Shown here: in pieces, positions 11,311-49,808 of the stretch
Position numbering within the stretch: the first letter of the stretch is position 1
Layout of the letters: every line of letters begins with the position of its first letter
Source: Nitrosopumilus sp.
Lineage (GTDB): Archaea; Thermoproteota; Nitrososphaeria; Nitrososphaerales; Nitrosopumilaceae
Length of the DNA: 64,000 bases
Assembly: GCA_965219345.1 (NCBI GenBank)
Contig: OZ244732.1
Coordinates: forward strand, 1,472,001 to 1,536,000
Reading direction: 5' to 3'
Program-made: the position numbers and the translations under genes
Notes under the pieces: model-generated
The model's input: only the letters and a program-made list of their open reading frames with translations
Databases searched by the model: none
Told to the model about the DNA's origin: nothing

Positions 11311-11603
11311 GGTTCCGGCAAATTCTGGTGATTTACACCATAAATCATCAGACATGGTTCTTCTCCGAAGTTTACTGCAACCGCATCATACCAACGTTCA
11401 GAAAATAAATCATCAGACATGGTTCTTCCCCGAACCGCTCTTTGAAATCCTGGGATAACCAGTACCTGTAACTTTCTCGAAATATCCATCACAACCCTGC
11501 TGTGATAACTCCCTTTGAGCCATCACATAAACTTGGCACAAAACTGCAAAGTGCAATTCAGAGAAGATCCATATTTCACTCATCACCAGAATTTGCCAGA
11601 TCC
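11311..11603. mobile_element. IS6-like terminal repeat / MITE-like element
   Basis: Starts GGTTCCGGCAAATTCTGGTGAT and ends ATCACCAGAATTTGCCAGATCC (inverted, 2 mismatches); 11311-11503 is also an inverted homologue of ~30189-30321. Confidence 0.7.
11340..11434. repeat. Repeat-spacer-repeat unit 1: 30 bp duplication flanking a 35 bp insert
   Basis: ATAAATCATCAGACATGGTTCTTC(T/C)CCGAA at 11340-11369 and 11405-11434; insert 11370-11404 is absent from the paralogous copy at ~30260-30293. Confidence 0.8.
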
Positions 11604-24800: not shown

Positions 24801-27800
24801 ATTGACGTCGTGCTGTCCGAAAACGTTACAATAAACGGTGCGACACCGGAAGACTTTGCGCTGTCCGGCACCCTATCCACATACCAGCGCGTGACCGGAA
24901 TCACGGCCCTTGCCGACACGGTAACCCTTACCCTCAATGATACGCTTGACAGTGATGATGTCATCAGCCTGGCATACACCAAAGGCACTGGCAGCATAGA
25001 TGACATTTCTCTCACGTCCTTTGTTGATTCTTTCTCAACAGTTTTCCAAGATATATCCCCACAGGGTTTGGCATTCTCTGGTGACGGAACAAAGATGTTT
25101 GTCGCAGGTGGTGATACCGATACCGTATACGAGTACGCACTAGCTGTCCCCTTTGACGTGTCCACTGTCCGCTACAATGGCAACTCCTTCTCAGTGGCTT
25201 CACAGGACACATCCCCACAGGGTTTGGCCTTCTCTAATGACGGTACCAGGATGTTTGTCGCAGGTAATTTCGGCAATGACGTAAACGAGTACACGCTAAC
25301 CGCCCCCTTTGACGTGTCCACTGTCACCTTTGTCGACTCTTTCTCAGTGGCTTCACAAGACGAATCCCCACAGGGTTTGGCCTTCTCCAATGACGGTACT
25401 AGGATGTTTGTCGCAGGTCGCGTTAGCAATGCCGTATACGAGTACGCGCTGACCGCCCCCTTTGACGTGTCCACTGCCAGCTATGGCAGCTCCTTCCCAG
25501 TAGGTTCACAGGACACATCCCCACAGGGCCTGGCCTTCTCCAACGACGGAACAAGGATGTTTGTCGCAGGTGATATTGGCAATGACGTAAACGAGTACAC
25601 ACTAACCTCCCCCTTTGACGTATCCACTGCCACCTTTGTCGACTTTTTCTCACTGGCGACATCAAGCGCATCATCCCCGCAGGGTTTGGCCTTCTCCAAT
25701 GACGGTACCAGGATGTTTGTTGCGGATTTTGATACCTTTGGCGTACACGAGTACGCGCTGTCAAAGCCATTTGCGCTATTCCCACAGCCAAACTCGCTTG
25801 CCAGCTTTGCGGCAACCTTGGTCACAAACAACATTGCATCACCACCCGCTGAAATTGATCCCTCGATAGATACCACCCCACCAACAATCACCGCAGCTGC
25901 CGTGACCTCCCTTACCGAGATACTCCTGACATACAGCGAGAACATAGACGTCACAACCACGGACGGCACGGGATTCGCCCTTTCCACCGGAACGGTGCAT
26001 GCAAACACCGATCCCGCCAGTACGGCAGACACCATAACCCTTACCGTCTCCGGCATCGCCGCATCCGATACTCCAGCTATAAGTTATACCACATCTGATG
26101 GCACCGTGACAGATACCGCGTCAAACCAGGCAGCAAACCAGGTCTTTGCCGGCACCACGGCGCTGCCGGACACCATTCCGCCAACAATCACCGCAGCTGC
26201 CGTGACCTCCCTTACCGAGATACTCCTGACGTACAGCGAGAACATAGACGTCACAACCACGGACGGCGCAGGATTCACCCTCTCTGACGGAGGAACGGTG
26301 TCGGCAAACTCTGATCCCGCCAGTACGGACGACACCATAACCCTTACCGTCTCTGGTATCACCACAGCATCCGATGCTCCAAACGTGATTTACACCGAGT
26401 CTGATGGCTCCGTGACAGATACCGCGTCAAACCCGGCAGCAAACCAGACCTTTACCGGCACCACCCCGCTGCCGGACACTGTTCCACCGGAGATCACCGC
26501 AGCTGCCGTGACCTCGGCTACCAGCATAGTCCTGACGTACAGCGAGAACATAGACGTCACAACCACAGACGGCGCAGGATTCACCCTCTCTGACGGACAA
26601 GTGACGGCAAACACCGATCCCGCCGGTTCGGACGACACCATAACGCTTGCCGTCTCCGGCATCACAGCATTCGATGCTCCAAACGTGATTTACACCGAGT
26701 CTGATGGCTCCGTGACAGATACCGCGTCAAACCAGGCCGAAGACCAGACCTTTGCCGGCACCACGGCGCCGCCGGACACTATTCCACCAACAATCACCGC
26801 AGCTGCCGTGACCTCCCTTACCGAGATACTCCTGACATACAGCGAGAACATTGACGTCAGCACCACGAACGGCGCAGGATTCGCCCTCTCTGACGGAGGA
26901 ACAGTGTCGGCAAACACCGATCCCGACAATTCGGGCAACACCATAATCCTTACCGTCTCTGGCATCACCACAGCTGATACTCCAGCCATAACCTACACCG
27001 CTCCACCTGGCACCGTGGTTGACAACGCGTCAAACCCGGCAGCAGACCAGACCTTTGCCGGCACCACCCCGCTACCCGATACTATTCCACCAAGAATCAC
27101 CGCAGCTGCCGTGACCTCCCTTACCGAGATACTCCTGACGTACAGCGAGAACATTGACGTCACAGCCACGAACGGCGCAGGATTCGCCCTCTCTGACGGA
27201 GGAACAGTGTCGGCAAACACCGATCCCGACAATTCGGGCAACACCATAATCCTTACCGTCTCTGGCATCACCACAGCTGATACTCCAGCCATAACCTACA
27301 CCGCTCCACCTGGCACCGTGGTTGACAACGCGTCAAACCCGGCAGCAGACCAGACCTTTGCCGGCACCACCCCGCTACCCGATACTATTCCACCAAGAAT
27401 CACCGCAGCTGCCGTGACCTCCCTTACCGAGATACTCCTGACATACAGCGAGAACATAGACGTCACAGCCACGAACGGCGAAGGATTCGCCCTCTCTGAC
27501 GGAGGAACAGTGTCGGCAAACACCGATCCCGCCGGTACGGGCAACACCATAATCCTTACCGTCTCTGGTATCACCACAGCATCCGATGCTCCAAACGTGA
27601 TTTACACCGAGTCTGACGGCACCGTGACAGATACCGCGTCAAACCCTGCAGCGAGCCAGACCTTTGCCGGCACCACCCCGCTACCCGATACTATTCCACC
27701 AACAATCACCGCAGCTGCCGTGACCTCCCTTACCGAGATAGTCCTGACGTACAGCGAGAACATAGACGTCACAGCCACAAACGGCCAAGGATTCGCCCTC

Positions 27801-30056
27801 TCTGACGAAGGAACGGTGTCGGCAAACACCGATCCCGACAATTCGGGCAACACCATAATCCTTACCGTCTCCGGCATTACCGACACATCCGATGCTCCAA
27901 ACGTGATTTACACCGAGTCTGACGGCACCGTGACAGATACCGCATCAAACCCTGCAGCGAGCCAGACCTTTACCGGCACCACCCCGCTGCCGGACACTAT
28001 TCCACCAACAATCACTGCGGCTTCTATGACCTCGGCTACCAACATGACCCTGACATACAGCGAGAACATAGACGTCACAACCACGAACGGCGCAGGATTC
28101 GCCCTCTCTGACGGAGGAACAGTGTCGGCAAACACCGATCCCGACAATTCGGGCAACACCATAATCCTTACCGTCTCCGGCATTACCGACACATCCGATA
28201 CTCCAGCCATCACCTATACCGCTCCACCTGGCACCGTGGTTGACAACGCGTCAAACCAGGCAGCAAACCAGACCTTTACCGGTACAACCGATAACGCGCC
28301 GCCAACCGTATCCTCCATTGCAACTGCCGGCACATCAACAATTGATATCGTGCTGTCCGAAGACGTCACAATAAACGGTGCGGCACCCGAAGACTTTGCG
28401 CTGTCCGGCACCATATCCACGGACCCAGTCGTAACCGGAATCACCGCCATTGCCGCCGCTGCTGCCAACACGGTCACCCTTGCCCTTGACGATACGCTTG
28501 ATCATGACGATGTCATCCTCCTGGCATACACCAAGACCACGGGCAGCATAGATGACATTCCTGCCGCTTCTGTCATCCTTGACACCTCCTTCTCCGTGTC
28601 CTCACAGAGCGACTTCCCGACAGGCCTAACCTTCTCTGCCAACGGAACAAAGATGTTTGTTCTAAGTGATGGTGACGATGCCGTATACGAGTACGCGCTA
28701 ACCGCCCCCTTCGACGTGTCTTCCGCCACCTTTACCAGATCTGACGTGTCTTCCGCCACCTTTACCAACTCTTCCTCAATGCCACAGGACACACTCCCGA
28801 CAGGCCTAACCTTCTCTGCCAACGGAACAAGGATGTTTGTCGTAGGTGATAGTCAAAACGTAATCGAGTACACGCTAACCGCCCCCTTTGACCTGTCTGC
28901 TGCTGTCACCTTTGCCAGCTTCTTCTCAGTGGCATCGCAAGTACAATCCCCGACAGGCCTAACCTTCTCTGCCAACGGAACAAAGATGTTTGTCGTGGAT
29001 GACAATGACGATGCCGTATACGAGTACACATTAACCGCCCCCTTTGACGTATCCACTGCCGTCCCTGCCGGCTCCTTCTCCATATCCTCACAGGACACAT
29101 TGCCATTTGGCATAACCTTCTCCGATGACGGTACCAGGATGTTTGTCGTAGGTAATTCTAACGGCAAGGTAAACGAGTACGCATTAACCACCGCCTTTGC
29201 CGTATCCACTGCCTCCTTTGCCGGCTCTTTTTCAACAGTTCCACAAGAGACGTTCCCATATGACCTGGCCTTCTCCGGTGACGGTACCACGATGTTCGTC
29301 GTAGGCATTAATAGCGATGCCGTATACCAGTACGCGCTGCCCGAACCGTTTACGCTATTCCCACAGCCAAACTCGCTTGCCAGCTTTGCGGCAGCCCCAG
29401 TCACAAACAACAACATTGCACCGCCCGTTGCGGATGATACGGAGGAACCAGAACCTGAACCGGAAAGAAAGCCCGAAAAGAGTGGTAGAGGCGGTGGTGG
29501 CGGCGGCCGTACCGGCGTCAGTCCAGCCGGAGGAGGAGAACCCCTGTCCAACATTGAGCTTTACGGCGTTTCATGGAACTGTGAGACGGGCCTAATCAGA
29601 ATAATAACCGGTGATGACTCGCCTACGCTGTCGGTATCCGTCAGAACCTCCATTGGCGGCCTGGCCGAGGCCAGCCTGTCCGATGAAAGAATACCCGGCA
29701 GCAAGGTATTCACATCCCATATGGGGCCTTCCGAGACATACCTTGGCATACTGCTGGTGGACATAGCGGGACGGGACAGCAACATTAGAAACGAAAGCAT
29801 CAGCATAAAACAGTGCGTTGGCGAGAAGACATATGATGGTGATGGTGATGGTGATGGTGATGGTGATGGTGACGCATCCGATACGCCAAAAAAGTCCCAG
29901 TCCAGTAGTAGCAGCAGCAGCGCATCCAAAGGCGACATGGAATGCAAGCCGGGCTTTACGCTGGTCAAGAACCTGAGAGATGATCTTGCCTGCCTCCTTG
30001 ACCGCTCGGTACAGCCGCTGATGGAGCGCGGCTGGGTAGAATCAATAGTCGGATAA
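15816..30056 (+). CDS. Giant (4,746 aa) secreted repetitive surface protein/adhesin: ~100 aa SwmB/Ig-like repeats and seven beta-propeller-like modules
   Basis: Signal peptide (ISFVILISTLMLASLSIVPAHA); PTITAAAVTS..I.LTYSENIDV repeats; P.GLAFS.DGTKMFV....VYEYTLTAPFDVST blades; C-terminal ECKPG...ACL...LMERGW motif; probable start ATG 15834. Confidence 0.9.
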   Translation: MCENKEMERISFVILISTLMLASLSIVPAHAAEHPTIIAASVTSATSIVLTYSENVDVNATDGAGFGLSDGGKVTANTDPAGSGNTITLTVSGITNTSDTPDVTYIESDGTVADGASNPAASQIFTGTVDDAPPTVSSIATSSASTIDIVLSENVTVNGAAPGDFVLSGTISTDPTVTGITAAADTVTLSLNDTLDGDDVIRLAYTRTMSSIDDISLTSFVDSFSVKAIEDEDPRSLAFSGDGYKIFILDGIADAVHEYTLTAPFDISNAAPVSSFSVASEDEDPRGLAFSGDGTKMFVVGTFDDGDVHEYALAVPFNISDATSANSFSTRSQDSYPRSLAFSGDGTKMFVVDSIGKDVNEYTLTAPFDISNATFVDSFSLVPSNVTFPQGLTFSNDGTRMFVVDSNSNDVHEYALTAPFDVSTATFVDSFSLVPSNIAFPQGLTFSNDGTRMFVTDFDTSDVYEYALSKPFTLFPQPNSLDSFVTTLVTNNIVPPTITAAAVTSLTEIVLTYSENVDVTTTNGEGFTLSVGTVTANTDPAGSDDTITLTVSGITTSDAPVITYIAPPGTVVDAESNPAADQTFTGTTDDAPPIVFSIATSNMSAIDIVLSEDVTVSSVAPEDFVLSSTISTDPTVTGITALNDTVTLSLNDTLAHNDVISLAYNKATGSIDDILAPPSFVGSFSVASQDNTPTGLAFSDDGTKMFVVGLTGTDINEYALTAPFDISNADFVDSFSVGSQEAFPADLAFSANGTKMFVIGLAGNDINKYTLTAPFDVSTASFVDSFQVSQTDISPRSLAFSNDGTKMFVLDIFGGDSYVNEYTLNGPFDVSTSSFVDSFSVASHAPSPQGLAFSDDGTKMFVSSSDNDAVIKYALTAPFDVSTASFVDSFSVSSQGFALTALAFSDDGTRMFVLENDSNAVYEYALSEPFTLFPQPNSLASFAAMSVTNNIVPLDTVPPTITAAAVTSLTEIVLTYSEDIDVTTTNGAGFTLSVGTVSATSDPAGSDDTITLTVSGITTSDTPNVTYTASDGSVADSALNQAASQTFTGTTDNAPPTVLSIVTNDTSTINIVLSENVTINGAAPEDFALSSTISTDPAVTGITAVTNNTVALALDDTLDSNDVILLAYTKTTGSIDDIPLPPLDGSFPVDMQDSESTGLAFSNDGTRMFVVSTGSDSDNDAVHQYTLTAAFDVSTATFVDSFSVGSQDTFPSGLAFSGDGTKMFVVGSFDNNINEYTLTTAFDVSTATSANSFSVSSQDILPLDMAFSADGTKMFVLGDAGDDINEYTLSAPFDVSNVAGTSDVTFVDSFPVASQDRSTQGLTFSADGTRMFVVGSINGAVYGYALTAAFDVSTATFVDSFSVTSQDRFPRGLAFSADGTRIFVLGSDSKNVHQYALSEPFTLFQQPNSLASFAAMSVTNNIPSDTTPPTITAAAVTSLTEITLTYSENIDVTTTNGEGFTLSVGQVTANTDPDNSDDTITLTISGITASDAPDVIYTESDGSVTDGASNPAASQTFTGTTPLPDTIPPTITAAAVTSLTEILLTYSENIDVTTTNGEGFILFVEGTVSANSDPDNSGNTITLTVSGITASDAPNVIYTESDGSVTDGASNPAASQTFTGTTPLPDTVPPTITAAAVTSATSITLTYSENIDVTTTNGQGFSLSVGQVTTNTDPAGSADTITLTVSGIPSTSHRPDVTYAASDGTVTDSASNPAASQTFTGTVDDAPPTVSSIETSSTSTNAIDVVLSEDVTVNSVESRDFVLSGTISTNPALTAVTVAADTLTLHLNAALAHDDVINLAYTKTTGSIDDIALPSFVDSFPVASRDTFPSGLAFSNDGTKMFVAGDSTDSVHQHVLSAPFDVSTSNFVRSFSINAQSTSPQGLAFSNDGTKMFVTDSFKSTVNEYTLSAPFNISNATFVQSTSLALNALQPHGLAFSTNGTLMFVASDFNDSVYNYLLSTPFDLSSYIPIDSFSVASQDVDPRHLAFSNDGTKMFVTGDASDSVHEYTLSRPFDTLTADFDSSFSVFSQDTSPTGLAFSNDGIRMFVVGDFGNDINEYILPKPFALFPQPNSLASFAATLVTNNVAPTPPPDDIDPSIDTTLPTITAAAVTSLTEILLTYSEDIDVTTTDGEGFALSTGTVHANTDPAGTADTITLTVSGITASDAPDVIYTESDGNVEDTASNEAASQTFTGTTQLPDTIPPTITAASVTSATSITLTYSENIDVTTTNGAGFSLSTGQVSANTDPAGSDDTITLTVSGITTSDAPAITYIAPPGTVVDAESNPAADQTFTGTTDDAPPTVSSIATASTSTINIVLSENVTINGAAPEDFVLSSTISTDPAVTGITAVTNNTVALALDDTLDSNDAILLAYTKTTGSIDDIPLPPLLSSFPVGIQGSGSNGMAFSNDGTRMFVVSSGSGSDNDAVHQYTLTAPFDVSTATFVDSFSVASQDTVPQGLAFSGDGTKMFVVGGFDNNINEYTLSAAFDVSTATSANSFSVASQDTAPLDMAFSADGTKMFVLGGAGDAVYEYTLTAPFDVSNVAGTSDVTFVDSFPVASEDTAPTGLAFSGNGTRMFVVGNFNDAVYEYALTAPFDVSTATSANSFSVSSQDQSPTGLALSADGTRIFVLGDNSENVHQYALSEPFTLFLQPNSLASFAAMSVTNNIASPPAEIDPSIDTTPPTIIAAAVTSLTEILLTYSEDIDVTTTDGTGFALSVGTVHANTDPAGSNDTITLTVSGIAASYTPAISYTTSDGTVTDTASNQAANQVFAGTTPLPDTTPPTITAAAVTSATSIVLTYSENIDVTTTDGEGFALSDGGTVSANSDPASTDDTITLTVSGITASDAPNVIYTESDGSVTDSASNPAANQTFTGTTPLPDTVPPEITAAAVTSAISIVLTYSENIDVSTTNGQGFSLSVGQVTTNTDPAGSADTITLTVSGIPSTSHRPDVTYAASDGTVTDSASNPAASQTFTGTTDDAPPTVSSIETSSTSTNAIDVVLSENVTINGATPEDFALSGTLSTYQRVTGITALADTVTLTLNDTLDSDDVISLAYTKGTGSIDDISLTSFVDSFSTVFQDISPQGLAFSGDGTKMFVAGGDTDTVYEYALAVPFDVSTVRYNGNSFSVASQDTSPQGLAFSNDGTRMFVAGNFGNDVNEYTLTAPFDVSTVTFVDSFSVASQDESPQGLAFSNDGTRMFVAGRVSNAVYEYALTAPFDVSTASYGSSFPVGSQDTSPQGLAFSNDGTRMFVAGDIGNDVNEYTLTSPFDVSTATFVDFFSLATSSASSPQGLAFSNDGTRMFVADFDTFGVHEYALSKPFALFPQPNSLASFAATLVTNNIASPPAEIDPSIDTTPPTITAAAVTSLTEILLTYSENIDVTTTDGTGFALSTGTVHANTDPASTADTITLTVSGIAASDTPAISYTTSDGTVTDTASNQAANQVFAGTTALPDTIPPTITAAAVTSLTEILLTYSENIDVTTTDGAGFTLSDGGTVSANSDPASTDDTITLTVSGITTASDAPNVIYTESDGSVTDTASNPAANQTFTGTTPLPDTVPPEITAAAVTSATSIVLTYSENIDVTTTDGAGFTLSDGQVTANTDPAGSDDTITLAVSGITAFDAPNVIYTESDGSVTDTASNQAEDQTFAGTTAPPDTIPPTITAAAVTSLTEILLTYSENIDVSTTNGAGFALSDGGTVSANTDPDNSGNTIILTVSGITTADTPAITYTAPPGTVVDNASNPAADQTFAGTTPLPDTIPPRITAAAVTSLTEILLTYSENIDVTATNGAGFALSDGGTVSANTDPDNSGNTIILTVSGITTADTPAITYTAPPGTVVDNASNPAADQTFAGTTPLPDTIPPRITAAAVTSLTEILLTYSENIDVTATNGEGFALSDGGTVSANTDPAGTGNTIILTVSGITTASDAPNVIYTESDGTVTDTASNPAASQTFAGTTPLPDTIPPTITAAAVTSLTEIVLTYSENIDVTATNGQGFALSDEGTVSANTDPDNSGNTIILTVSGITDTSDAPNVIYTESDGTVTDTASNPAASQTFTGTTPLPDTIPPTITAASMTSATNMTLTYSENIDVTTTNGAGFALSDGGTVSANTDPDNSGNTIILTVSGITDTSDTPAITYTAPPGTVVDNASNQAANQTFTGTTDNAPPTVSSIATAGTSTIDIVLSEDVTINGAAPEDFALSGTISTDPVVTGITAIAAAAANTVTLALDDTLDHDDVILLAYTKTTGSIDDIPAASVILDTSFSVSSQSDFPTGLTFSANGTKMFVLSDGDDAVYEYALTAPFDVSSATFTRSDVSSATFTNSSSMPQDTLPTGLTFSANGTRMFVVGDSQNVIEYTLTAPFDLSAAVTFASFFSVASQVQSPTGLTFSANGTKMFVVDDNDDAVYEYTLTAPFDVSTAVPAGSFSISSQDTLPFGITFSDDGTRMFVVGNSNGKVNEYALTTAFAVSTASFAGSFSTVPQETFPYDLAFSGDGTTMFVVGINSDAVYQYALPEPFTLFPQPNSLASFAAAPVTNNNIAPPVADDTEEPEPEPERKPEKSGRGGGGGGRTGVSPAGGGEPLSNIELYGVSWNCETGLIRIITGDDSPTLSVSVRTSIGGLAEASLSDERIPGSKVFTSHMGPSETYLGILLVDIAGRDSNIRNESISIKQCVGEKTYDGDGDGDGDGDGDASDTPKKSQSSSSSSSASKGDMECKPGFTLVKNLRDDLACLLDRSVQPLMERGWVESIVG
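29835..29870 (+). repeat. (GATGGT)6 in-frame microsatellite encoding (DG)6
   Basis: Read directly from the sequence. Confidence 0.9.
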
Positions 30057-30535: not shown

Positions 30536-31509
30536 TTATCGATCATTCACCACCAGTACATAATCAGGCAATAATGAGAAAGTATCTTCATCTCTATTGT
30601 TGTATCTCCATGCCATCTCCTTGATGTACAACAGAAACTTTTCAGAACTGACACCGTGATGCTTTGCCATTCTCTCTTTTGCAAAACTCCAAAAATCCTC
30701 AGTTCCGTTGATGCAGACATCGCCTTTTCCAAACATCCTACCGTGATCAGCTGACAAATGACGATAACCATGGAACATCAACGAATCATGATCTTTCCAC
30801 CTGTCTGTATACGCAATGCCTCCTTTCCTTACTTTCTTGACGGTTCCGGCAAGAAGTGTACTGACTTTCACATCTGTGACAATCTCAACGTGAACCTTTC
30901 CCTTTCTCTCCAAAATTCCAAATACAATTGTCCTGTTTTTGGCACCGCGTCCGCGATTTCCCTTTCCTTTGCCTCCAAAATACGCCTCATCAGCCTCAAT
31001 TTTGCCCTTTGGTTTCCTGTCTGACCTTGCAAGATGGCATGATATGGAGTGGTGCATACAGTCAAATGCATTTAGTGCGGTAGGATGACTGACATCTGCT
31101 TCCCTTGCTGCACGCAGGATGAAAACCAGGTAACGAAATCTGTCCTCTTCGTAGGATGACTGACATCTGCTTCCCTTGCTGCACGTCTTGCACTAATCCT
31201 AGGATCAAAGAGTTTGGTTAGAATCAACCATTTTGTAAAACCAATATTGATTGTATCCAACCATGTTCCGCCAAACGGCCTGTAATCTATTTTACAATCT
31301 TTGCACCTTAACTTTCCTCTTAATATGATGTAATACTTTTTGGAACCGCATGAGGTACGATGAACTGTATTTTTCTTTTGGAATTCCTTACAGGGAAATT
31401 CCAATGCGGCTGATTTGTTGTAAGTTATTTTGGATAGTTCAATCAGGTTGATTGTTTTTCCTAATAATTGTGTGAAATCAGTTGGCGGTAACAGGTTTAC
31501 AATCACCAA
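30536..31509 (-). pseudogene. IS1595-family (ISXO2-like) transposase split by a 71 bp repeat-spacer insertion
   Basis: Zn finger (RCKDC), EADEAYFGGK.KG.RGRGA, VFGILER, YTD, NG.E.FWS.AK, WRYN; 5' boundary uncertain. Confidence 0.88.
31080..31185. repeat. Repeat-spacer-repeat unit 2: 35 bp duplication flanking a 36 bp insert
   Basis: GTAGGATGACTGACATCTGCTTCCCTTGCTGCACG at 31080-31114 and 31151-31185. Confidence 0.95.
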
Positions 31510-32175: not shown

Positions 32176-33407
32176 TCAGTCGGGAGGGCATCTCGCAATA
32201 ATGCCACTTATATCAATGCCACACTTGGCCGCCACGTTTTCCAAATGCACCCTGTCGTAGGGCGTCCAATGGCACAGCGTTCCGTCGTGACTGCCGCACC
32301 AATCAATGAAATCGAGCATCATTTTGCGTTACCCGTCTCGACTTTTGGCCAGAAACGGTACATATTTTCCGTCTTGCATAGTTCCTATGAGGAAATCGCC
32401 ATCGGGATCTCCCGCGATGCCTTCAAGATCTATAAACGTGGGATTCTCCGGCAACGGGATATCGCACAGTTTGACTTCTTTGCCGCTTGACAACGCTGCC
32501 GCACACGACACATGACGTGCCGTTATGCCATTTGGCAGTGTTTCCAATCTGGTCAAGTCGTCTATGGTCTGCACCCCGATGTCTGCCAACATCTGACGCT
32601 TTACTGGACCTATCCCGTTAACCAGTGATATGTCGCCTGACTTGATCGCCATCTGGTCGACATATTGACTCCATGGACGCGGTGTGTGTCCGTAAATAGG
32701 TTCAGGCATAACGGCACCGTTCGCTAAATCATGGACTTTATTGATGAATTCCTGCATCTGATCCGCATATTGATCGTAAGGACACTCTCTTTCGTCTCCA
32801 TTGCCATTCACGATGACAAAATCGGGGGCATAGCCTTGTATGATTCCCAGCATGTGAGTACGCCGCCCCCTGCCAGACGTGCTGCGGTTTGATGATGTTG
32901 CTGCTATTATACGGCCTCCGTTACGGGTATAAGGTTGTCATCCTGCCAGACGTGCTGCGGTTTGATGATGTTGCTGCTCTTCATTTCATATGGAACGTAC
33001 GAATGCTTCCAGAACAGCGACTGTTTCTCGACGCGCACGAGCAAGTCGGGGATGCCACACACGCTGCCTCCGAAGAGGCACACACCACGCAGTTGTTTCA
33101 CCCCCTTCTGCATGTCTTCAAGTCCAGCTAGGAATGATTCAGTACGCGTTTTGACAGTCTTGGTTTCCATGACCAGCCCTTCAGACATTTCCATAGTGAC
33201 AGTCTCTTCATGTTCGAGGCCGCGTATCACAAGAGTCTGGTCTTCGTCTTGGTGCACTGGATCTACATGATGGTTACACCATACGGCAAACGGAGAAACC
33301 CTACACAGTCCTATTTCAGACGCTATGGCACGCACGCCGTCTGCCATACATCGTTCGAATATCTGTTCGGCATTTTCAGTTTTTCGTCTTCGCTTCCAAA
33401 ATGGCAT
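32176..33407 (-). pseudogene. TM0106-like RecB/Cas4-type nuclease with HhH and RNase H-like domains, disrupted
   Basis: SPFAVWC, GIPDLL...YEMKSS (PD-(D/E)xK), VNGIGPVKRQML (HhH), FIDLEG, and HWTPYD after an in-frame stop at 32329; 73 bp insertion plus a second frameshift. Confidence 0.8.
32869..32978. repeat. Repeat-spacer-repeat unit 3: 37 bp duplication flanking a 36 bp insert
   Basis: CCTGCCAGACGTGCTGCGGTTTGATGATGTTGCTGCT at 32869-32905 and 32942-32978. Confidence 0.95.
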
Positions 33408-35709: not shown

Positions 35710-36777
35710 TCTATTGTACGGAAATTATGTCGCGCGCCAAGAGTCCGGCGTACTGCCCAAGAGTATTTTACACTACACAAGTCCAGGCATCCCATGCCAA
35801 TACGCCTGACCGACAAGGCCATCCGATACGCCGTCAGGCAGCTGGAGAAGGGCAAAGACACCAAGACGGTCGCAGAAGAGATCAACGTCACCCAGAGGCA
35901 TGTGCAGCGGCTGTGGGCCGAATTCAACAGGACCGGTTCGATCCACGTCCAGCAGCCTGCAGGACGGCCGGCAGATCTCCCACCGCCCGACGAGGAAACC
36001 AATATGGTATTAGACGTTCACGGACGCAAGCCGGAGGGTGTGCTACGGACAGCCAAGAGGCTTCGGAAGGAGGGACACGATATAAGCTACTCCCGCGTAT
36101 ACCAGATAATGAAGTCCAACGGCCTGGTCATCGACTCCCCGGCAAAGTCGAGGAAGCGCAAGTGGGTCAGGTACGAGCGCCTGTACTCGAATGCCATGTG
36201 GCATACTGACTGGCATGTGATGAAGGATCCGCGCATGAAGGATCTGAACCTGATCACGTATCTTGATGATGCCTCCAGGTGCGTTACGGGCGCGGCATTG
36301 TTCAAGGAGGCCACCTCAGAGAACGCGGTGGCGGTGCTCCGGCAGGCAGTCGGCAGGTTCGACGTGCCGGCGACCATCCTGTCCGACAACGGCTCGTGCT
36401 TCGTCGGCAGGGGCGGCCGCAAGAGGCAGACAGGCACCTGGACTCCGACCCTCTTTGAGAACGAGCTGCTGGACCACAACATAGGGCTGATCAATTCAAG
36501 ACCGTATCACCCGCAGACCAACGGAAAACTGGAGAGGTTCCACAGGAGCATCGAGGAGGAAATATGGCACTATGACGGGCTGGACGACTATGTCGAGTAC
36601 TACAACACGGACAGGCTGCACTTTTCACTGGACATCGACAACTACGAGACGCCGCTGATGGCGTTCCGCAACAAGAGGGCTACCGACGAGATAAGACAGC
36701 AGAATTCCAGATGGATGGAGGCAGATATCAATGACTGACGACCCAGACAGGGGGCGACATGATTTTCATATATTACA
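35710..36777 (+). mobile_element. IS481-family element nested in the cargo transposon
   Basis: Imperfect 24 bp inverted ends TCTATTGTACGGAAATTATGTCGC / GCGACATGATTTTCATATATTACA; visibly higher GC; no clear TSD. Confidence 0.75.
35794..36738 (+). CDS. IS481-family DDE integrase-type transposase
   Basis: N-terminal HTH, WHTDWH, YLDDASR, LSDNGSCF, YHPQTNGKLERFHRS, YNTDRLH. Confidence 0.92.
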   Translation: MPIRLTDKAIRYAVRQLEKGKDTKTVAEEINVTQRHVQRLWAEFNRTGSIHVQQPAGRPADLPPPDEETNMVLDVHGRKPEGVLRTAKRLRKEGHDISYSRVYQIMKSNGLVIDSPAKSRKRKWVRYERLYSNAMWHTDWHVMKDPRMKDLNLITYLDDASRCVTGAALFKEATSENAVAVLRQAVGRFDVPATILSDNGSCFVGRGGRKRQTGTWTPTLFENELLDHNIGLINSRPYHPQTNGKLERFHRSIEEEIWHYDGLDDYVEYYNTDRLHFSLDIDNYETPLMAFRNKRATDEIRQQNSRWMEADIND

Positions 36778-36830
36778 CTCTGCCCTCGGCGGCAAAAAGG
36801 TCTTAAACTTCCCATAGCCTGATCCAGTAA

Positions 36831-38444
36831 TTGGGCAAGACCATGACAAGGTACTATCCACAGAGTACCGGCATAGAATCCTCAAAGCCAAAGTCGTGCT
36901 ACTGCGGGCACGGCGACGACTTTAGGACGATATCCAGGGCAGACAAGAACGACACGCGCTACATGTGCAACAAGTGCAAGAAGAGTTACATTGTCAGGAA
37001 TCCAGAAACGGACAGACAGCAGATCAAAAAGATGGGCAGCATCTTGGACAACATCATACTCGGGATGAGTTCAAGGCAGACGTGCCTCAAGATGTTTATA
37101 GACTGGGGCCACGTCATAAAGCACCCCACCATACTCAGTTGGTCAAAGAACCACGTCCAGTACGCAAAGATGTTCACAGACGACATACTCTGCTGCCTAG
37201 AGTATGGGAGCGTGTGGGGGATAGACGAGACGGCAATGGACATACGCGGGTGGTGGCATGAGGCAGACCCCGAGATCCTCTCCCAGATGAGGACAATCGA
37301 GGAGAAGGCAAGGGAGTACGGGCTTCTAAAGGATCCCGAATTCAAGAAGGAATGGGAGAGGCTGCGCGCAAGGTCAGAAAGGTCAAAGAGGAGTGCAAAA
37401 AAGAAATGGCTTACGGCAGTCGTCGACCTGAAGACGAGACTGGTCATACACTACATCATCACCGACAAGCGTCCAGACAACAAGGACATCTACCGCCTCG
37501 TCAAGATGGCCACCGTCGTGGCAGGCATGCCCACAAACATCATAACTGACTGCTACTTGGCATACAAGCCCGCAATCCGAAGGCTTACCGGGGACATTGA
37601 AAAGCAGGGCGGGAAGCTGAACCACATACTGGTGCGCGCAAAAAACCAGAGCGAACTCCACTTTAAGCCGAAAAAACCCACAAACGGCGTTCCCAACCAC
37701 AACAACAGAATCGAGAGCGCATGGTCGACCATAAAGAGGAATATGGACATAATGTCCGGGTACGGGGAGTACCATTCTGACCACGTTATCAGCTACAACA
37801 TCATAAACCACAACTTCATCAAGCCGCATTCCTCCCTGAGAAAGTTCAGGACAGTCAGGCAGGGGCAGGCAAACATGGTAAACATGACTCCGGCCATGGA
37901 GGGGGGATACCCAAAGTGGTTTGCCAACTTTAACGAGTTGCTCACAGAATCGTGGGGGTATGACAAGTCGTTTATCTTCAAGCTCGGTCCGAGGATGCTG
38001 GACAGGCTCCGCGTCGGCATACGGGGTAGGAAGACGGTGGCCATAGCCGTCAAGAAGCGGACTGCAAAAAGCATGGTTGCAAAGATAGACAGGAAGCTTC
38101 AGACAGAGTGTGGGTTTGAATACGTACCGGAGAGAAAGGAGTGGAGGCGCGAGATACCGTCTATTATGAACATGAACAGGAGGCGCGAGGACAATATGGG
38201 TGCGGTAATGCCGATGCAGACATTTGAGGTGTGCAACAGGTGCGGACTGGCAGCACTTACCACGCAGACCGTGGTTGAACTCATCGGATACAGAAAATCC
38301 AATGGCAGGATAATCACGCAGCCAAACTGCCATAGGTGCAGAAACAAACTCTCAAGGAACCCCAAGCGCCGCACTGGGCAGAACCGCAAAAAAATGACTG
38401 AAAAGTCAGTCCTTTTGGGCATTCAGAAGAGGCTTGACTGTTGA
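36831..38444 (+). CDS. IS6/IS240-like DDE transposase, unusually long (537 aa)
   Basis: N-terminal Zn finger, WGIDET, WLTAVVD.KTR, IITDCYLAY, NNRIESAWSTIK, HNFIKPHSSL, C-terminal CNRC..CHRC; stop codon falls in the right TIR. Confidence 0.85.
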   Translation: MGKTMTRYYPQSTGIESSKPKSCYCGHGDDFRTISRADKNDTRYMCNKCKKSYIVRNPETDRQQIKKMGSILDNIILGMSSRQTCLKMFIDWGHVIKHPTILSWSKNHVQYAKMFTDDILCCLEYGSVWGIDETAMDIRGWWHEADPEILSQMRTIEEKAREYGLLKDPEFKKEWERLRARSERSKRSAKKKWLTAVVDLKTRLVIHYIITDKRPDNKDIYRLVKMATVVAGMPTNIITDCYLAYKPAIRRLTGDIEKQGGKLNHILVRAKNQSELHFKPKKPTNGVPNHNNRIESAWSTIKRNMDIMSGYGEYHSDHVISYNIINHNFIKPHSSLRKFRTVRQGQANMVNMTPAMEGGYPKWFANFNELLTESWGYDKSFIFKLGPRMLDRLRVGIRGRKTVAIAVKKRTAKSMVAKIDRKLQTECGFEYVPERKEWRREIPSIMNMNRRREDNMGAVMPMQTFEVCNRCGLAALTTQTVVELIGYRKSNGRIITQPNCHRCRNKLSRNPKRRTGQNRKKMTEKSVLLGIQKRLDC

Positions 38445-38755: not shown

Positions 38756-38865
38756 CTGGATCTACGCGTCCAACTGCATCGCTTGTTCTAGTTCCTATAC
38801 TGGGCCCAAGCCTTGGATATGGAAACCAGCTGGATCTACGCGTCCAACTGCATCGCTTGTTCTAG
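38756..38865. repeat. Repeat-spacer-repeat unit 4: 36 bp duplication flanking a 38 bp insert
   Basis: CTGGATCTACGCGTCCAACTGCATCGCTTGTTCTAG at 38756-38791 and 38830-38865. Confidence 0.95.
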
Positions 38866-44949: not shown

Positions 44950-46249
44950 CAGTAGTCGGAAATGTCCCCATAAAACCAGCCAACAGATGCTCTCTGATGC
45001 GTTAACATTTTTCGATCATACAGATCTATTATCTACAGTGCCCTTACCCACCTTAGTGTTAGTGCAAAAAGGTGGGCAGGTACACCGTAACAAGATTGGA
45101 GAAAGGATACTTAATACCTTGTCAGCAATACTAGAGTCTTCATCCATAGGATTCTCTACTAGGAAGAATGCTCAATATGGGGTAAGCGAGTTTGTAGCCA
45201 TACTGATGAAGATGTCTGAATCCAACATAGCTTCCGAGGAAGCAATCAGGCTTCTCAAGCACGCAGAAAAGAAGATGCCATCACCCAAGTGGTTTCGCAA
45301 CAGGATAAACTCGCTGGGATCAGGCAGTGCAGACAAACTCTGCAGGGACATGCTCACACGCACCGCAAGACTTGCCAAGAATACATGCCGATACAAGGGA
45401 GGCGTACTAGTAGCAATAGACAAGCACCTGATACCAAGGCATGACAAGGACAACATGTCACATTTGACAAGATCCAAACCAAAGGGCGGTACAAGTAAGT
45501 TCGAGTGTTACGCAACAATGCATGTGGTAGCAGAACGGGTTCCTGCCATTTTGGAGTGCATGCAGGTAACGCGCAGCGTGGATGATGCCGATTTTGTGCG
45601 TAAATTCGTACAAAAACTCAAGGGTTACAGGATACGGGCCCGGCTGCTGCTGATGGACCGCGAGTTCTACTCTACTGAAATAATCAATCTTGTATCAGAA
45701 CATAGATGCAAGTTCCTGATGCCTGCAGTCAAGAACGCGGGGATAAAGAGGATGATACGGGAGCACCACGATAAATCACGCAAGGCAGTCTCACAGTACG
45801 CCATCAGAAACGCAGCAGGTCAGTCTGCCACATTTACATTGATAATCACGCCATCAAAAAAGATAGACGATCCTGATGCTGACATCACGGAAAGATACAA
45901 TGTCTTTGCCACCAACCTTTCCCCAGCCAAGGCATTAGAAGAGATTGAGACGCTTCCAGATGAGTACAAGAGTAGGTGGGGAATAGAGACAGGATACAAG
46001 CAGGTCGAGCAGGTGCGTCCGAGGACAACAAGCCGCAATGCGTCATTTAGGGGAATCATGTTTCACGTCTCGATGTTCATGTACAATGCATGGGCAGTGG
46101 AGCAGTACCGAACAGATTCAAATTATGATCGGGTAACCCTGGCACTTGTCGCATATGCTACGGCAATGGCTGCGTTGGAATTATGCAGGATGGCGGGTCA
46201 ACCGTATGATGTCGGAGGATCTGCCTAAGAGGCATATTTCCGACTACTG
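44950..46249 (+). mobile_element. ISH3-like (IS4 superfamily) insertion sequence, 1,300 bp
   Basis: Perfect 14 bp TIRs CAGTAGTCGGAAAT / ATTTCCGACTACTG; 5 bp TSD GTAGT at 44945-44949 and 46250-46254. Confidence 0.93.
44987..46228 (+). CDS. ISH3-like DDE transposase
   Basis: VAIDKHLIP, LLMDREFYS, YKSRWGIETGYK; start must lie inside the TIR, so the ORF-track start 44909 is too far upstream. Confidence 0.88.
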   Translation: MLSDALTFFDHTDLLSTVPLPTLVLVQKGGQVHRNKIGERILNTLSAILESSSIGFSTRKNAQYGVSEFVAILMKMSESNIASEEAIRLLKHAEKKMPSPKWFRNRINSLGSGSADKLCRDMLTRTARLAKNTCRYKGGVLVAIDKHLIPRHDKDNMSHLTRSKPKGGTSKFECYATMHVVAERVPAILECMQVTRSVDDADFVRKFVQKLKGYRIRARLLLMDREFYSTEIINLVSEHRCKFLMPAVKNAGIKRMIREHHDKSRKAVSQYAIRNAAGQSATFTLIITPSKKIDDPDADITERYNVFATNLSPAKALEEIETLPDEYKSRWGIETGYKQVEQVRPRTTSRNASFRGIMFHVSMFMYNAWAVEQYRTDSNYDRVTLALVAYATAMAALELCRMAGQPYDVGGSA

Positions 46250-47409
46250 GTAGTGTAAGATCATTTATTGGTTGAATTGCAGGAGATCGTACTCCAATGA
46301 GAGTAGTTGTTGTGGAATGGTTAGAATACTCTCCTATTCCTTGCGAGTTTCTTGCCTGAATTCTGTATGTGTATTGTGTGTTGTCTGTTACTGTACTGTC
46401 TGTGTAGGTATTTGTGGTGTGATCGCCATAACTATTCTCCAGTGTTACAAATGAGCCAGCTCCAGTCTGCCTTTGAATGATATAGTGTATGATGTCACTG
46501 CCGCCATCAAATGGCGGACTCCATGAGAGGACAACTGATGAGGATGTGCCAGTTGCTAGAACGTCAGTTATTGTGCTTGGTATGCTCAAATCATAGATTG
46601 CAAAATTATCAATCACCACATCTTCTGTGTTTCCATTTTCTTGGGCAGTAAACCTTACACTAAAGTCATCGTCTCTCCATGCAGAAATATCATATGTCTG
46701 AGTATGCCAGTTGCCATCAAAGTCACGCCCACTATCCCACAATTCTATCTGGTTCCAAGTAGTTCCATCATACACCTCAACTAGGACATAGTCATGTGGA
46801 GGTCGATTTCTTTCAGTGCCATCAAGAGAATTATCAAGCCACCTATCAAATTCCAGTCTTGGGTTGGCAAAACCAGATATGTCAAACTCGTTAAATGTCA
46901 TGATACACGCCACATCACAATCCCTGGAGCGTACTACATTTCCTTCTCGTCCATCAAATTCAGAACCAGATACTATCTGCCATGTGTCATAGTCATGTGT
47001 GTCAGGTGGAATCTGTGCATCTGCAATTATGCTCCAAAAGCCCAATCCGTTATCAAACGAATCTGAAACTCCAGAACCAGTAGCTGTGATGCTTTGCACA
47101 TCTATGTGTATGGTACCTGTGGTGGTATGGCCGTCTCTTCCATCAGTTGCGGTATATGTAAAAGAGTCAAACCCAATGCTACGAGGAGTATACCTTATCT
47201 GGCTTGAGGTAGGAGTGATGTTGGGTAAAGCGTTTGTATCTAGTATTCCCAAAGATGGATAACTGCCAATACTAAATGAAATGTGATCAAGGTCAGCGTC
47301 AGTTGTAGTTATAGGTATTATGATTGGCGGGCCATTTACTGTAACGTTATGATTGGTAAGTAATAATGGCGGTGTGTTTGGTACTGCAAGGAAACCACAG
47401 TCTGCCCTA

Positions 47410-47518
47410 GTTGCAGCCCCTGCACCAAAGGTTCCAGGTGCACATTCGGCTCTAGATTTATGACAGATATGGGAGGTCTAAGGTTGCAGCCCCTGCACCA
47501 AAGGTTCCAGGTGCACAT
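47410..47518. repeat. Repeat-spacer-repeat unit 5: 36 bp duplication flanking a 37 bp insert
   Basis: GTTGCAGCCCCTGCACCAAAGGTTCCAGGTGCACAT at 47410-47445 and 47483-47518. Confidence 0.95.
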
Positions 47519-48221
47519 ACATCAATGGAGTAGCCTTCACGTACATTCTCAAGTGTAGTGGTGCCTGTTGGCACATCCATCCAAGTGTTGCCGTCTTTGT
47601 ATTGAGCCTCAGTAATGCGAGTACTAGGTATTGTGGAATATTGGGTAACGGGAGAGATTGTTCCTTCTGCACCAAAGTCAATATTTAGTACTCTGTCTGC
47701 TTCAAAATTCAGAGGAGATGGCGGGATTAGTCCTAGTGCTCTGCGGTCTCCATAGTACAAATTCCATGTTCCTGAATTATTTTTCTCTATTGCAAATCTT
47801 TTCTCTATTCCTATTGTATCGCCATGCGGATCTGTAATATCCTCAATGTAGATACGCTCATCCTCTTCAAAAGCTCTGGAATATGCATAGTATGCAGATT
47901 CAATTGTGACACATCTACCCTGACTATCAGGTGGATCAATCCAGCCTACAGTTATGCCGTTTTCAATCCATTGTTCTTGTACATTGCTCTGTTCTAGATG
48001 TACCCAGCCGGTAACTACTGCGCCCATCTCCTCACAGGCCTGCTCATCGATATACAAGTCTGGAATCTCAATGTTGTATCGCAATCCCTGGAATTCTGAG
48101 CCAAACGTAATTCCAGTAGTTGTTGTTGCATAACAGTGAGGATCACTACATTGTGCTGATGCGTCATAAACTGTAATTGCTGCAAATGCAACTAGCACCA
48201 CAATGAGCAATAATGGCATAA

Positions 48222-49292
48222 TCACTGCCGCTCAAATATATCTAGAAATATATCCTCGTATGTCTCCAGTGGAACACCTTTCCCCCCTACATTTAGCTCC
48301 AATGTATTGGTAAATAGTGTAACAGATTTAACATTTGGATTAGATGGTGATTCTACAAGTGTTACGTAGGTTCCGCCATGCCTTTCCTCAACTAACACTT
48401 GTGTACTGGCTCCGTTTTTAGTTATTCTATCTATTGTGCTTTGTAACATAGGAACTTCCTTGTATGGAGTTGTCCTGACAAAGATTTCAATTAAAGCAAT
48501 GTCTGATATTTCATATGTCATCATATCAGGAGTGATGGTTACCGTATTTGGAAAATAACTAATGTAAAGGCTCCCACTCTCTCCACTAGCACCGCCAAAC
48601 CATCCAGGTTGGGTAACTGTGATCCACTTTAGTTCAAAGCCTGCGGGTATTGTAGATGGCATCCACTGTCTATAGTCAATTGTATTGACATGCGTTGAAT
48701 TTGATGTAATGACATTTGCAAGTAATGTGTGTGGTGTGATTGTTCCCTCAGATAGGGATGCTGCATTATTTTGCAGTATTTGTGGAATGTCATAGAGGTC
48801 ACCTGAAAATGTCTCAGATACTGCTCTGGGTGCAGGACGTCTTAGTGTTTGTGGATCATAATATCCGTACTCTTCTCCCGAAAACTCTACATCAGAAGTT
48901 ATTGGAAACTTTACAAATTCTTTTGCTGGGTTGTTTGCTGTAGTTGCAGTAGCTAGTGTTGCTGTATCAGTCGGTGTTGCTGTATCAGTCGGTGTTTCAT
49001 GCACATCTGTATTAGAATCTGTGTCTTTTTTATCATCTATGAGTTTATCATTTGTAAACTCTGTCTTGATTATACTCCAGTCCATTCTCTCTGCTGTCTT
49101 TTCTGTAACACATGCTACTGTTCTGCTATTGCCTCGATCTACCAAGATACGATTCTCTCTGCACTGTATATCTTCAGGTAAGATGCCTAATTCTAGCTGT
49201 TTTTTTGGGGAGATATATTCAGAGTATGATGGAATAATTAATGGAGCAATACCAATTAATAATAACACAAATATGAATACAATCTTTCTCAT
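48222..49292 (-). CDS. Secreted protein with thaumarchaeal SPxxQ...C...ACV N-terminal motif
   Basis: Signal peptide; SPKKQLELGILPEDIQCRE...ACVTEKTAERMDW; Thr-rich linker; overlaps the next gene by 4 bp. Confidence 0.75.
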   Translation of the reverse strand: MRKIVFIFVLLLIGIAPLIIPSYSEYISPKKQLELGILPEDIQCRENRILVDRGNSRTVACVTEKTAERMDWSIIKTEFTNDKLIDDKKDTDSNTDVHETPTDTATPTDTATLATATTANNPAKEFVKFPITSDVEFSGEEYGYYDPQTLRRPAPRAVSETFSGDLYDIPQILQNNAASLSEGTITPHTLLANVITSNSTHVNTIDYRQWMPSTIPAGFELKWITVTQPGWFGGASGESGSLYISYFPNTVTITPDMMTYEISDIALIEIFVRTTPYKEVPMLQSTIDRITKNGASTQVLVEERHGGTYVTLVESPSNPNVKSVTLFTNTLELNVGGKGVPLETYEDIFLDIFERQ

Positions 49293-49436: not shown

Positions 49437-49808
49437 ATGGGATTCATTGACTTGTTCCGCAAAAAGAAAAAACTAGAATCAACACCTGAACCAGCTAAGG
49501 AAGAACCAGCTAAGGAAGAACCAGCTAAGGAAGAACCAGCTAAGGAAGAACCAGCTAAGGAAGAACCAGCTAAGGAAGAACCAGCTAAGGAAGAACCAGC
49601 TAAGGAAGAACCAGCTAAGGAAGAACCAGCTAAGGAAGAACCAGCTAAGGAAGAACCAGCTAAGGAAGAACCAGCTAAGGAAGAACCAGCTAAGGAAGAA
49701 CCAGCTAAGGAAGAACCAGCTAAGGAAGAACCAGCTAAGGAAGAACCAGCTAAGGAAGAACCAGCTAAGGAAGAACCAGCTAAGGAAGAACCAGCTAAGG
49801 AAGAATAA
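49437..49808 (+). CDS. Short protein made of 21 EPAKE repeats
   Basis: MGFIDLFRKKKK leader followed by in-frame repeats. Confidence 0.6.
   Translation: MGFIDLFRKKKKLESTPEPAKEEPAKEEPAKEEPAKEEPAKEEPAKEEPAKEEPAKEEPAKEEPAKEEPAKEEPAKEEPAKEEPAKEEPAKEEPAKEEPAKEEPAKEEPAKEEPAKEEPAKEE
49488..49802 (+). repeat. 21 perfect tandem copies of GAACCAGCTAAGGAA
   Basis: Read directly: 315 bp. Confidence 0.97.

Follow-up and report, generated by a model that had tools for sequence, protein, structure and literature searches.

A predicted surface-protein gene with two lesions

The stretch of DNA analysed here (the window) comprises 64,000 nucleotides of the 1.87-Mb chromosome of Nitrosopumilus sp. (G000:C1:1472001-1536000), whose genome is represented by a metagenome-type assembly of two contigs. 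On its minus strand the window contains two fragments of what is predicted to be one gene for a secreted or surface protein. The N-terminal fragment (47458-48225, 255 codons) starts with a hydrophobic segment and has no Pfam match in its N-terminal domain, and the C-terminal fragment (46251-47444), delimited by tblastn of residues 238-641 of the homologue L014 onto positions 47444-46251, matches the Pfam domains fn3 (3.7e-12) and Big_9 (6.5e-06). At the junction of the two fragments lies a repeat-insert-repeat unit (hereafter unit 5), in which an exact 36-nt direct repeat (copy 1, 47410-47445; copy 2, 47483-47518) surrounds an insert of 37 nt (47446-47482). A search for the 36-mer allowing up to three mismatches returned two matches in the 64-kb window and none in each of 100 dinucleotide-preserving shuffles, and a preliminary description of this DNA had reported the same insert and the same copies.

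The C-terminal fragment lies one base out of frame with the N-terminal fragment. The latter now terminates at a stop codon 7 codons into the insert, and the former is part of a stop-free stretch of 439 codons which is in a different frame from the N-terminal open reading frame (ORF) and ends at 46158; on the minus strand, the sequence of copy 1 encodes the 12 residues directly following the junction. Scripted removal of 73 bases converted the minus-strand stop-free stretches of 257 and 439 codons into a single one of 666 codons, corresponding to an ORF of 664 codons when counted from a GTG start. This result and the translation across the junction agree with the earlier claim that excision of the insert plus one copy joins both ORFs in frame. 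The companion claim, that a surface-protein gene is interrupted by the insert and one copy, is also in line with our data, the product being predicted to be secreted from its hydrophobic N-terminus and its Big_9 and fn3 domains.

Downstream, at about 44950-46250 on the plus strand, an insertion sequence (IS) with terminal inverted repeats encodes a DDE transposase (PF01609, 6.4e-12); it has four other matches in the genome, two of them full-length with 99.8% identity and two partial with 100% identity. Homology of the interrupted gene to L014 stops at 46251, exactly at the end of the IS, and the 3' end of the gene is thus truncated at about 46250. The gene therefore carries two lesions, and unit 5 is not the sole one.

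Homologues of the interrupted gene

With the N-terminal fragment as query, a six-frame search detected homologues in 17 of 121 genomes of the genus, G000 being one of the 17. In most cases the match ends at residue 248, where copy 2 ends, and several homologues read on in open frames of approximately 700 to 1900 codons. L014, the best homologue, can be aligned to the joined frame as a single segment of 634 residues with 37% identity (E = 1e-123), and copy 1 and copy 2 both align to the same residues of L014 (238-249). In all eight homologues that were aligned, which come from relatives and show 30-44% identity, the sequence runs uninterrupted across the junction; each has a single copy of the block and lacks the insert. 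The preliminary description had concluded that the repeat is ancestral coding sequence and had predicted a single copy without insert in orthologues; the homologues support both statements, none of them having both copies and the insert. At the DNA level, a search of 41 relatives with positions 46900-48000 revealed no orthologue of the target gene, and only the 37-nt insert was matched.

The closest homologue of the N-terminal domain (L013 in G052, positions 1399-2247 of the minus strand, 44% identity) is an ORF of only 282 codons, which is followed by a separate open frame matching the C-terminal part. This gene thus seems to be split as well, at another place approximately 35 codons past the unit 5 junction.

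Origin of the insert

The preliminary description had proposed a search for the source of the insert, and an exact copy was found in the host's own genome. All 37 nt are identical to G000:C1:249804-249840, which lies inside an ORF of 698 codons matching PF00361 and PF00662 (Proton_antipo_M and Proton_antipo_N); the source gene is therefore predicted to encode a NuoL-like subunit of complex I. Translated in one of its frames, the insert yields the nuoL peptide, and the same stretch is conserved at 83-94% in 11 relatives. The nuoL-like sense lies on the plus strand of the window, and the insert is thus antisense inside the minus-strand target gene. At the source, the copied stretch is directly preceded by TTT when read in one orientation and by TTG when read in the opposite one, and the TTT-preceded orientation is on the same strand that best aligns the duplicated block of unit 5 to the repeat of the resident CRISPR array.

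The resident CRISPR-Cas system

The genome contains a single CRISPR array (C1:1641728-1653821) with 164 copies of a 36-nt repeat, which ends in AGC, and 163 spacers. Of these spacers, 37 are 36 nt long, 35 are 37 nt, 34 are 38 nt, 23 are 39 nt, 13 are 40 nt, 8 are 35 nt and 13 are longer, so that 106 of the 163 measure 36, 37 or 38 nt. Unit 5, with its 36-nt duplication and its 37-nt insert of spacer length, equals a repeat and a spacer of this system in size. An intact Cas4g/Cas1g fusion without stop codons (754 bits; cut-off 560) is encoded just upstream of the array, next to Cas2 (36.9 bits), and downstream of the array, on the other strand, there are genes for Cas3g, Cas8g/Csx17, Cas7g/Csb1 and Csb2. 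Judged from this gene content, the resident system can be classified as type I-G.

In a family search of the whole genome, this fusion was the only intact cas1, and one broken fragment was found in addition (C1:1123019-1123249, 69 bits, one TGA). Approximately 1 kb upstream of cas4/1 there is another repeat-insert-repeat unit (C1:1638625), whose copies differ by one mismatch and whose insert resembles C1:301522-301557, also with one mismatch; it is an older ectopic unit.

Related units across the genome

Outside the array and periodic arrays, the genome was surveyed for pairs of identical direct repeats which measure at least 30 nt and have a spacing of 30 to 300 nt. Of these doublets, 24 had a spacing of 70 to 79 nt, compared to zero to two in each other 5-nt bin below 130 nt. 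Four of the 24 were dropped as protein-coding tandem repeats (C1:698956, 1030798, 1030900 and 1168748). In the remaining 20 units all repeats are unrelated to each other, and so are all inserts. Their spacings are 70 nt (one unit), 71 (three), 72 (three), 73 (six), 74 (five), 75 (one) and 76 (one), which, given a duplication of 36 nt, corresponds to inserts of 34 to 40 nt. Together with three further units showing one mismatch between copies (C1:88235, 869602 and 1638625), the chromosome carries about 20 to 23 such units. Four of the 20 are located in the window, namely unit 5 at 47410 and three others, each with its own repeat and its own insert, at 31080-31185 (copy, insert and copy of 35, 36 and 35 nt), 32869-32978 (37, 36 and 37 nt) and 38756-38865 (36, 38 and 36 nt). 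The units are clustered, with five neighbouring pairs less than 5 kb apart versus 1.3 expected (P = 0.007).

Seven units, including three with one mismatch between copies, have insert ends which are fixed by a match elsewhere in the genome. In these the inserts vary from 34 to 39 nt, and the duplicated block measures 36 nt or is compatible with that length; for one of them (C1:123645) the exact repeat is 38 nt, and the 36-nt reading depends on ambiguous boundary bases. A block of fixed size combined with an insert of variable size indicates a ruler rather than compensating lengths. The mean GC content of the 20 inserts (42.6%) is close to that of the array spacers (42.0%), compared to 36% for the genome, and the inserts are not hairpins (mean folding z-score -0.37; one of 20 below -2). 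Taken together, the fixed block and the spacer-like inserts fit an integrase which measures a fixed distance and takes up spacer-like DNA.

A direct duplication around a short insert would also be produced by a small mobile element of the MITE type with an unusually long target-site duplication. This reading is hardly tenable, as the inserts of the 20 units are all different and none of them has terminal inverted repeats; the single pair of units with a common insert (C1:37507 and C1:243305) represents a duplicated locus. A transposable element in general was rejected as a candidate as well, because there are 20 different inserts in 20 units rather than the same element with defined ends at several sites.

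Unit 5 is the clearest gene break among the 23 units examined. Removal of the unit restores longer frames also at C1:426365 (138 and 192 codons joined to 261) and at C1:1503080 (218 extended to 304). Many units are found in stretches without long frames, and one unit of 75 nt lies in frame within an ORF of 3372 codons.

Some two-copy repeats resemble these units only in part. At 11340-11434 of the window there is a unit of 30, 35 and 30 nt with one mismatch between copies. As a paralogous gene at C1:1826944 shows the same structure, this unit probably represents a repeat of the protein or an old unit that was duplicated, and not a separate integration. Four other loci (C1:431953, 1251065, 1265409 and 1573079) contain two-copy repeats of 27 to 32 nt with a period of 64 to 67 nt and unrelated inserts of 34 to 39 nt, a geometry which differs from that of the 36-nt system.

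Target sites

According to the preliminary description, the duplicated block of unit 5 resembles a CRISPR repeat, and this resemblance might be the reason why the site was targeted. The alignment with the genome's CRISPR repeat, which had been proposed as a check, came out at chance level, with 15 identities over 36 positions, a value reached by 26% of random 36-mers. The 20 duplicated blocks taken together (best strand, offsets of up to 3) have on average 13.55 identities to the true repeat, which equals the null expectation (13.51 +/- 1.69). Self-complementarity is at chance as well: the fold of the unit 5 block has a z-score of -0.72, 25% of GC-matched random 36-mers fold as well, and the mean z-score of the set is -0.16. 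In addition, the pseudo-repeat of unit 5 is without the 7-bp stem predicted in the fold of the true repeat. The termini of the unit 5 block (7 + 7 nt) match the true repeat at 9 of 14 bases (P = 0.010; 0.006 when GC-matched), and the strand with this match is also that on which TTT precedes the insert at its source; over all 20 sites terminal similarity was not significant (8 + 8 nt; 6.25 versus 5.78 matches, P = 0.11). What stands of the earlier claim is thus a similarity of the termini, which faintly hints that the site may have been hit for its likeness to a CRISPR repeat, whereas overall identity and the noted dyads do not exceed chance. The off-target sites of Shmakov and colleagues reportedly resembled the cognate repeat, unlike the sites found here, whose overall similarity to the repeat is that of random sequence.

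The sites have an end motif of their own. In the 18 half-sites of the nine units with a duplication of exactly 36 nt, T is found at position +2 in 12, G at position +4 in 13, and A at position +6 and at position +7 in 10 each; for G at +4, P is 7e-7 relative to genome composition and 5e-6 relative to local composition, both before correction for about 72 tests. Unit 5 shows the full motif at the end reading GTTGCA and a partial one at its other end. The true repeat carries T at +4 on both strands, in contrast to the ectopic motif, and a simple model in which sites are chosen for their likeness to the repeat does not predict the motif.

These comparisons also bear on whether unit 5 might be a working mini-CRISPR or regulatory unit, transcribed within the mRNA of the broken gene and giving rise to an RNA antisense to nuoL. 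The insert is indeed antisense to nuoL on the strand of the target gene, and off-target units have been proposed as seeds of new arrays (Nivala et al. 2018, as presented in bioRxiv 10.1101/148544 and PMC6698737). We nevertheless consider this function very unlikely: the pseudo-repeat is no more similar to the true repeat than expected by chance and has no counterpart of its predicted stem, there are only two copies and no leader was seen, the unit resides in a gene that is also cut by an IS element, and a working guide directed against the cell's own nuoL should be harmful. A functional CRISPR array was rejected as a candidate on the same two features of the repeat, namely its 15 identities to the cognate repeat and the missing stem. 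As the pseudo-repeats are unlike the real repeat, unit 5 probably does not yield a processed guide RNA. This would account for the tolerance of a self-targeting insert at this site but not in the array.

Self-derived inserts

Matches to the own chromosome were found for 8 of 23 ectopic inserts, whereas the 163 array spacers had none (Fisher P = 1.6e-8). Five of the eight matches are exact and full-length, and the others comprise one of 36 nt with one mismatch, one of 39 nt, and one of 32 nt with one mismatch to a multi-copy family; the remaining 15 inserts are without a source in the genome. Searched against the own genome including the second contig of 41.6 kb, the 163 array spacers gave chance matches of 16 to 21 nt only. 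Such a contrast would be anticipated if selection removed self-targeting spacers only from the sites of their expression. In a heterologous assay of the type I-U/I-G system of Geobacter, approximately 30% of the unique spacers came from the host chromosome according to the available account (PMC6547450), a host-derived share which can be set beside the 8 of 23 ectopic inserts in our genome.

Several inserts copying the genome's own DNA, as well as an end motif that differs from the ends of the true repeat, are features which would also agree with insertion and duplication independent of Cas proteins, either by a replication or repair accident with templated filler or by an undescribed mechanism producing units of about 72 nt, the size of a CRISPR unit being coincidental. 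In contrast, such a process does not readily account for the block of 36 nt (or consistent with it) in seven units whose inserts vary between 34 and 39 nt, for insert lengths and a GC content matching those of the array spacers, for inserts which do not form hairpins, or for the 15 of 23 inserts for which the genome offers no template. We regard it as improbable.

The type I-G (I-U) Cas4/1 of Geobacter sulfurreducens, which acquires mainly 36-bp spacers, has been reported to use a TTN PAM (Almendros et al. 2019, as far as presented in PMC6547450). The TTT beside the nuoL-like source would fit this PAM by analogy; TTN is the PAM of Geobacter and may not be that of the system studied here. Directly upstream of the sources, TTN is found for only two of the eight self-derived inserts. 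A PAM-like bias of the insert ends (TT or CTT at the start, or AA or AAG at the end) was seen in 11 of 20 inserts compared to 5.0 expected (P = 0.005); this pattern was defined after looking at the data and is counted as a lead only.

Public reads and relatives

A metagenome-type assembly in two contigs leaves room for an artefact of assembly. Both junctions of unit 5 are present in Logan contigs of the public sequencing runs X1 and X4, which belong to one study and may be those the assembly was made from; short contigs link the insert to copy 1 on one side and to copy 2 on the other. The runs X5 and X6 cover too little of the region to be informative. In addition, an artefact is hard to reconcile with twenty units that share one geometry and differ in content, and we consider it extremely unlikely. 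A one-letter variant is present at the left junction in the Logan contigs. Contig depth is lower at the junction than in the flanks (34 versus 46-49 in X1; 83-90 versus 125-250 in X4), which weakly hints at a coexisting allele without the insertion, contig depths being poor measures for this purpose; in addition, a word of 31 letters cannot span a repeat of 36 nt.

Among the 121 genomes sampled from the genus, 10 were found to encode Cas4/1, one of them being G000. The relative G055, with a median DNA identity to G000 of about 82%, encodes a Cas4/1 that is 83% identical and has an identical 36-nt repeat. In the 1.2 of 2.39 Mb of its genome that were scanned, three unique candidate units and a dispersed repeat family were seen, a yield that does not clearly exceed background, and at the G055 homologue of the site of the unit at 31080 there is one copy and no insert (76-77% identity). 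Possession of the system is thus not enough to bring about the density of units observed in G000, and judging from this comparison the density is special to G000 or its close kin.

Cas4/Cas1 fusions with 50-57% identity are also encoded in Caldilineaceae and Dehalococcoidia assemblies (loci L036-L053), which suggests that the I-G adaptation module may have been transferred between archaea and bacteria of similar habitats.

Probable ectopic spacer integration

Unit 5 is very probably the scar of an ectopic full-site integration of a spacer of self DNA by the resident type I-G Cas4/Cas1 fusion together with Cas2. Direct observations on which this reading draws are the geometry of the unit and its match to the geometry of the array, the intact integrase genes, the self-derived insert, the continuity of the homologues and the broken frame; catalysis by Cas4/1-Cas2 and the order of the steps are what we infer from them. 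The complex would capture a 37-nt prespacer from the nuoL-like gene of the host, beside the TTT. Both 3' ends of the prespacer would then be joined to the two strands of a non-CRISPR site in the surface-protein gene, at attack points 36 bp apart, which is the distance normally measured across the CRISPR repeat. Repair of the two resulting single-stranded gaps would duplicate these 36 bp, and the 73 added bases would shift the frame, leading to the stop codon 7 codons into the insert. Arguments against integration by the resident complex include that the pseudo-repeats are overall unlike the true repeat, that the end motif differs, that few self-derived inserts are preceded by TTN, and that such units are sparse in G055.

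Events of this kind are known from the laboratory, and unit 5 and its sister units are a natural case of unusual density. In E. coli, off-target integration by Cas1-Cas2 with repeat-length duplication was described by Nivala, Shipman and Church (Nat Microbiol 2018), as far as their work is presented in PMC7054753, PMC6698737 and bioRxiv 10.1101/148544. Like the units found here, theirs consist of a spacer-length insert at a non-CRISPR site with a target duplication of repeat length, which was attributed to Cas1-Cas2. In contrast to our observations in a natural archaeal genome with a type I-G Cas4/Cas1 fusion, these experiments used the type I-E system of E. coli with over-produced Cas1-Cas2 and supplied oligonucleotides, and the approximately 20 units, the many self-derived inserts and the visibly broken target genes set our case apart from what is presented of that study; the natural evidence given there is circumstantial and comes from two other species (bioRxiv 10.1101/148544). 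Off-target acquisition is also one of three origins proposed for isolated arrays (Shmakov et al., CRISPR J 2020, as represented in PMC13142298), which, like the units described here, are de novo repeat-spacer-repeat units away from cas genes.

Off-target integration by Cas1-Cas2 of Pyrococcus furiosus was observed in an in vitro plasmid assay, and there, too, integration occurred at non-CRISPR DNA with a spacing set by the length of the repeat (PMC6698737). The P. furiosus sites share sequence features with the repeat and were used to read out the recognition by the integrase; in our units, by contrast, the common motif (T at +2, G at +4) differs from the ends of the resident repeat. The Geobacter I-U/I-G system is of the same subtype and likewise has a Cas4/Cas1 fusion, mainly 36-bp spacers and a repeat ending in AGC; that study scored acquisitions in the array only, and the available account does not mention ectopic sites (PMC6547450). 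At the level of listings and abstracts, a literature search returned no report of such units for Nitrosopumilus, for sponge symbionts or for type I-G systems.

Laboratory studies have documented off-target integration well, but little is known about how often it occurs in nature and at what cost. Unit 5 offers a clean natural case, in which a gene is broken by a misplaced spacer, the source gene is identified, and about twenty sister events are found in one genome; its interest lies in the number of these events, in the contrast between self-derived inserts and array spacers, and in the target motif. Such units make it possible to read the 36-bp ruler of the integrase, its choice of targets outside the array, and the share of self DNA before selection (8 of 23, as opposed to none of 163), which bears on self/non-self discrimination during CRISPR adaptation, on the cost of autoimmunity and on the birth of new arrays. 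Tentatively, the ectopic units could even be viewed as an uncensored natural log of the captures and sites of type I-G Cas4/1-Cas2. About one third of the captured DNA would then be self DNA, purged from the array and kept at inert sites; the integrase would have an intrinsic preference for T at +2 and G at +4, 36 bp apart; and ectopic integration might be an ongoing mutagenic force which creates pseudogenes, is still polymorphic in the population and seeds new arrays. We deem this broader view possible and put less trust in it than in its counterpart for unit 5.

Other repetitive sequences in the window

Two regions of the window (16000-30000 and 36000-38000) form blocks of 52-58% GC within the genome of 36% GC and contain a 24-nt motif 12 times at regular spacings; these blocks look like large repetitive protein genes. 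At 49437-49808, an exact 15-nt tandem repeat encodes approximately 22 copies of the peptide EPAKE.
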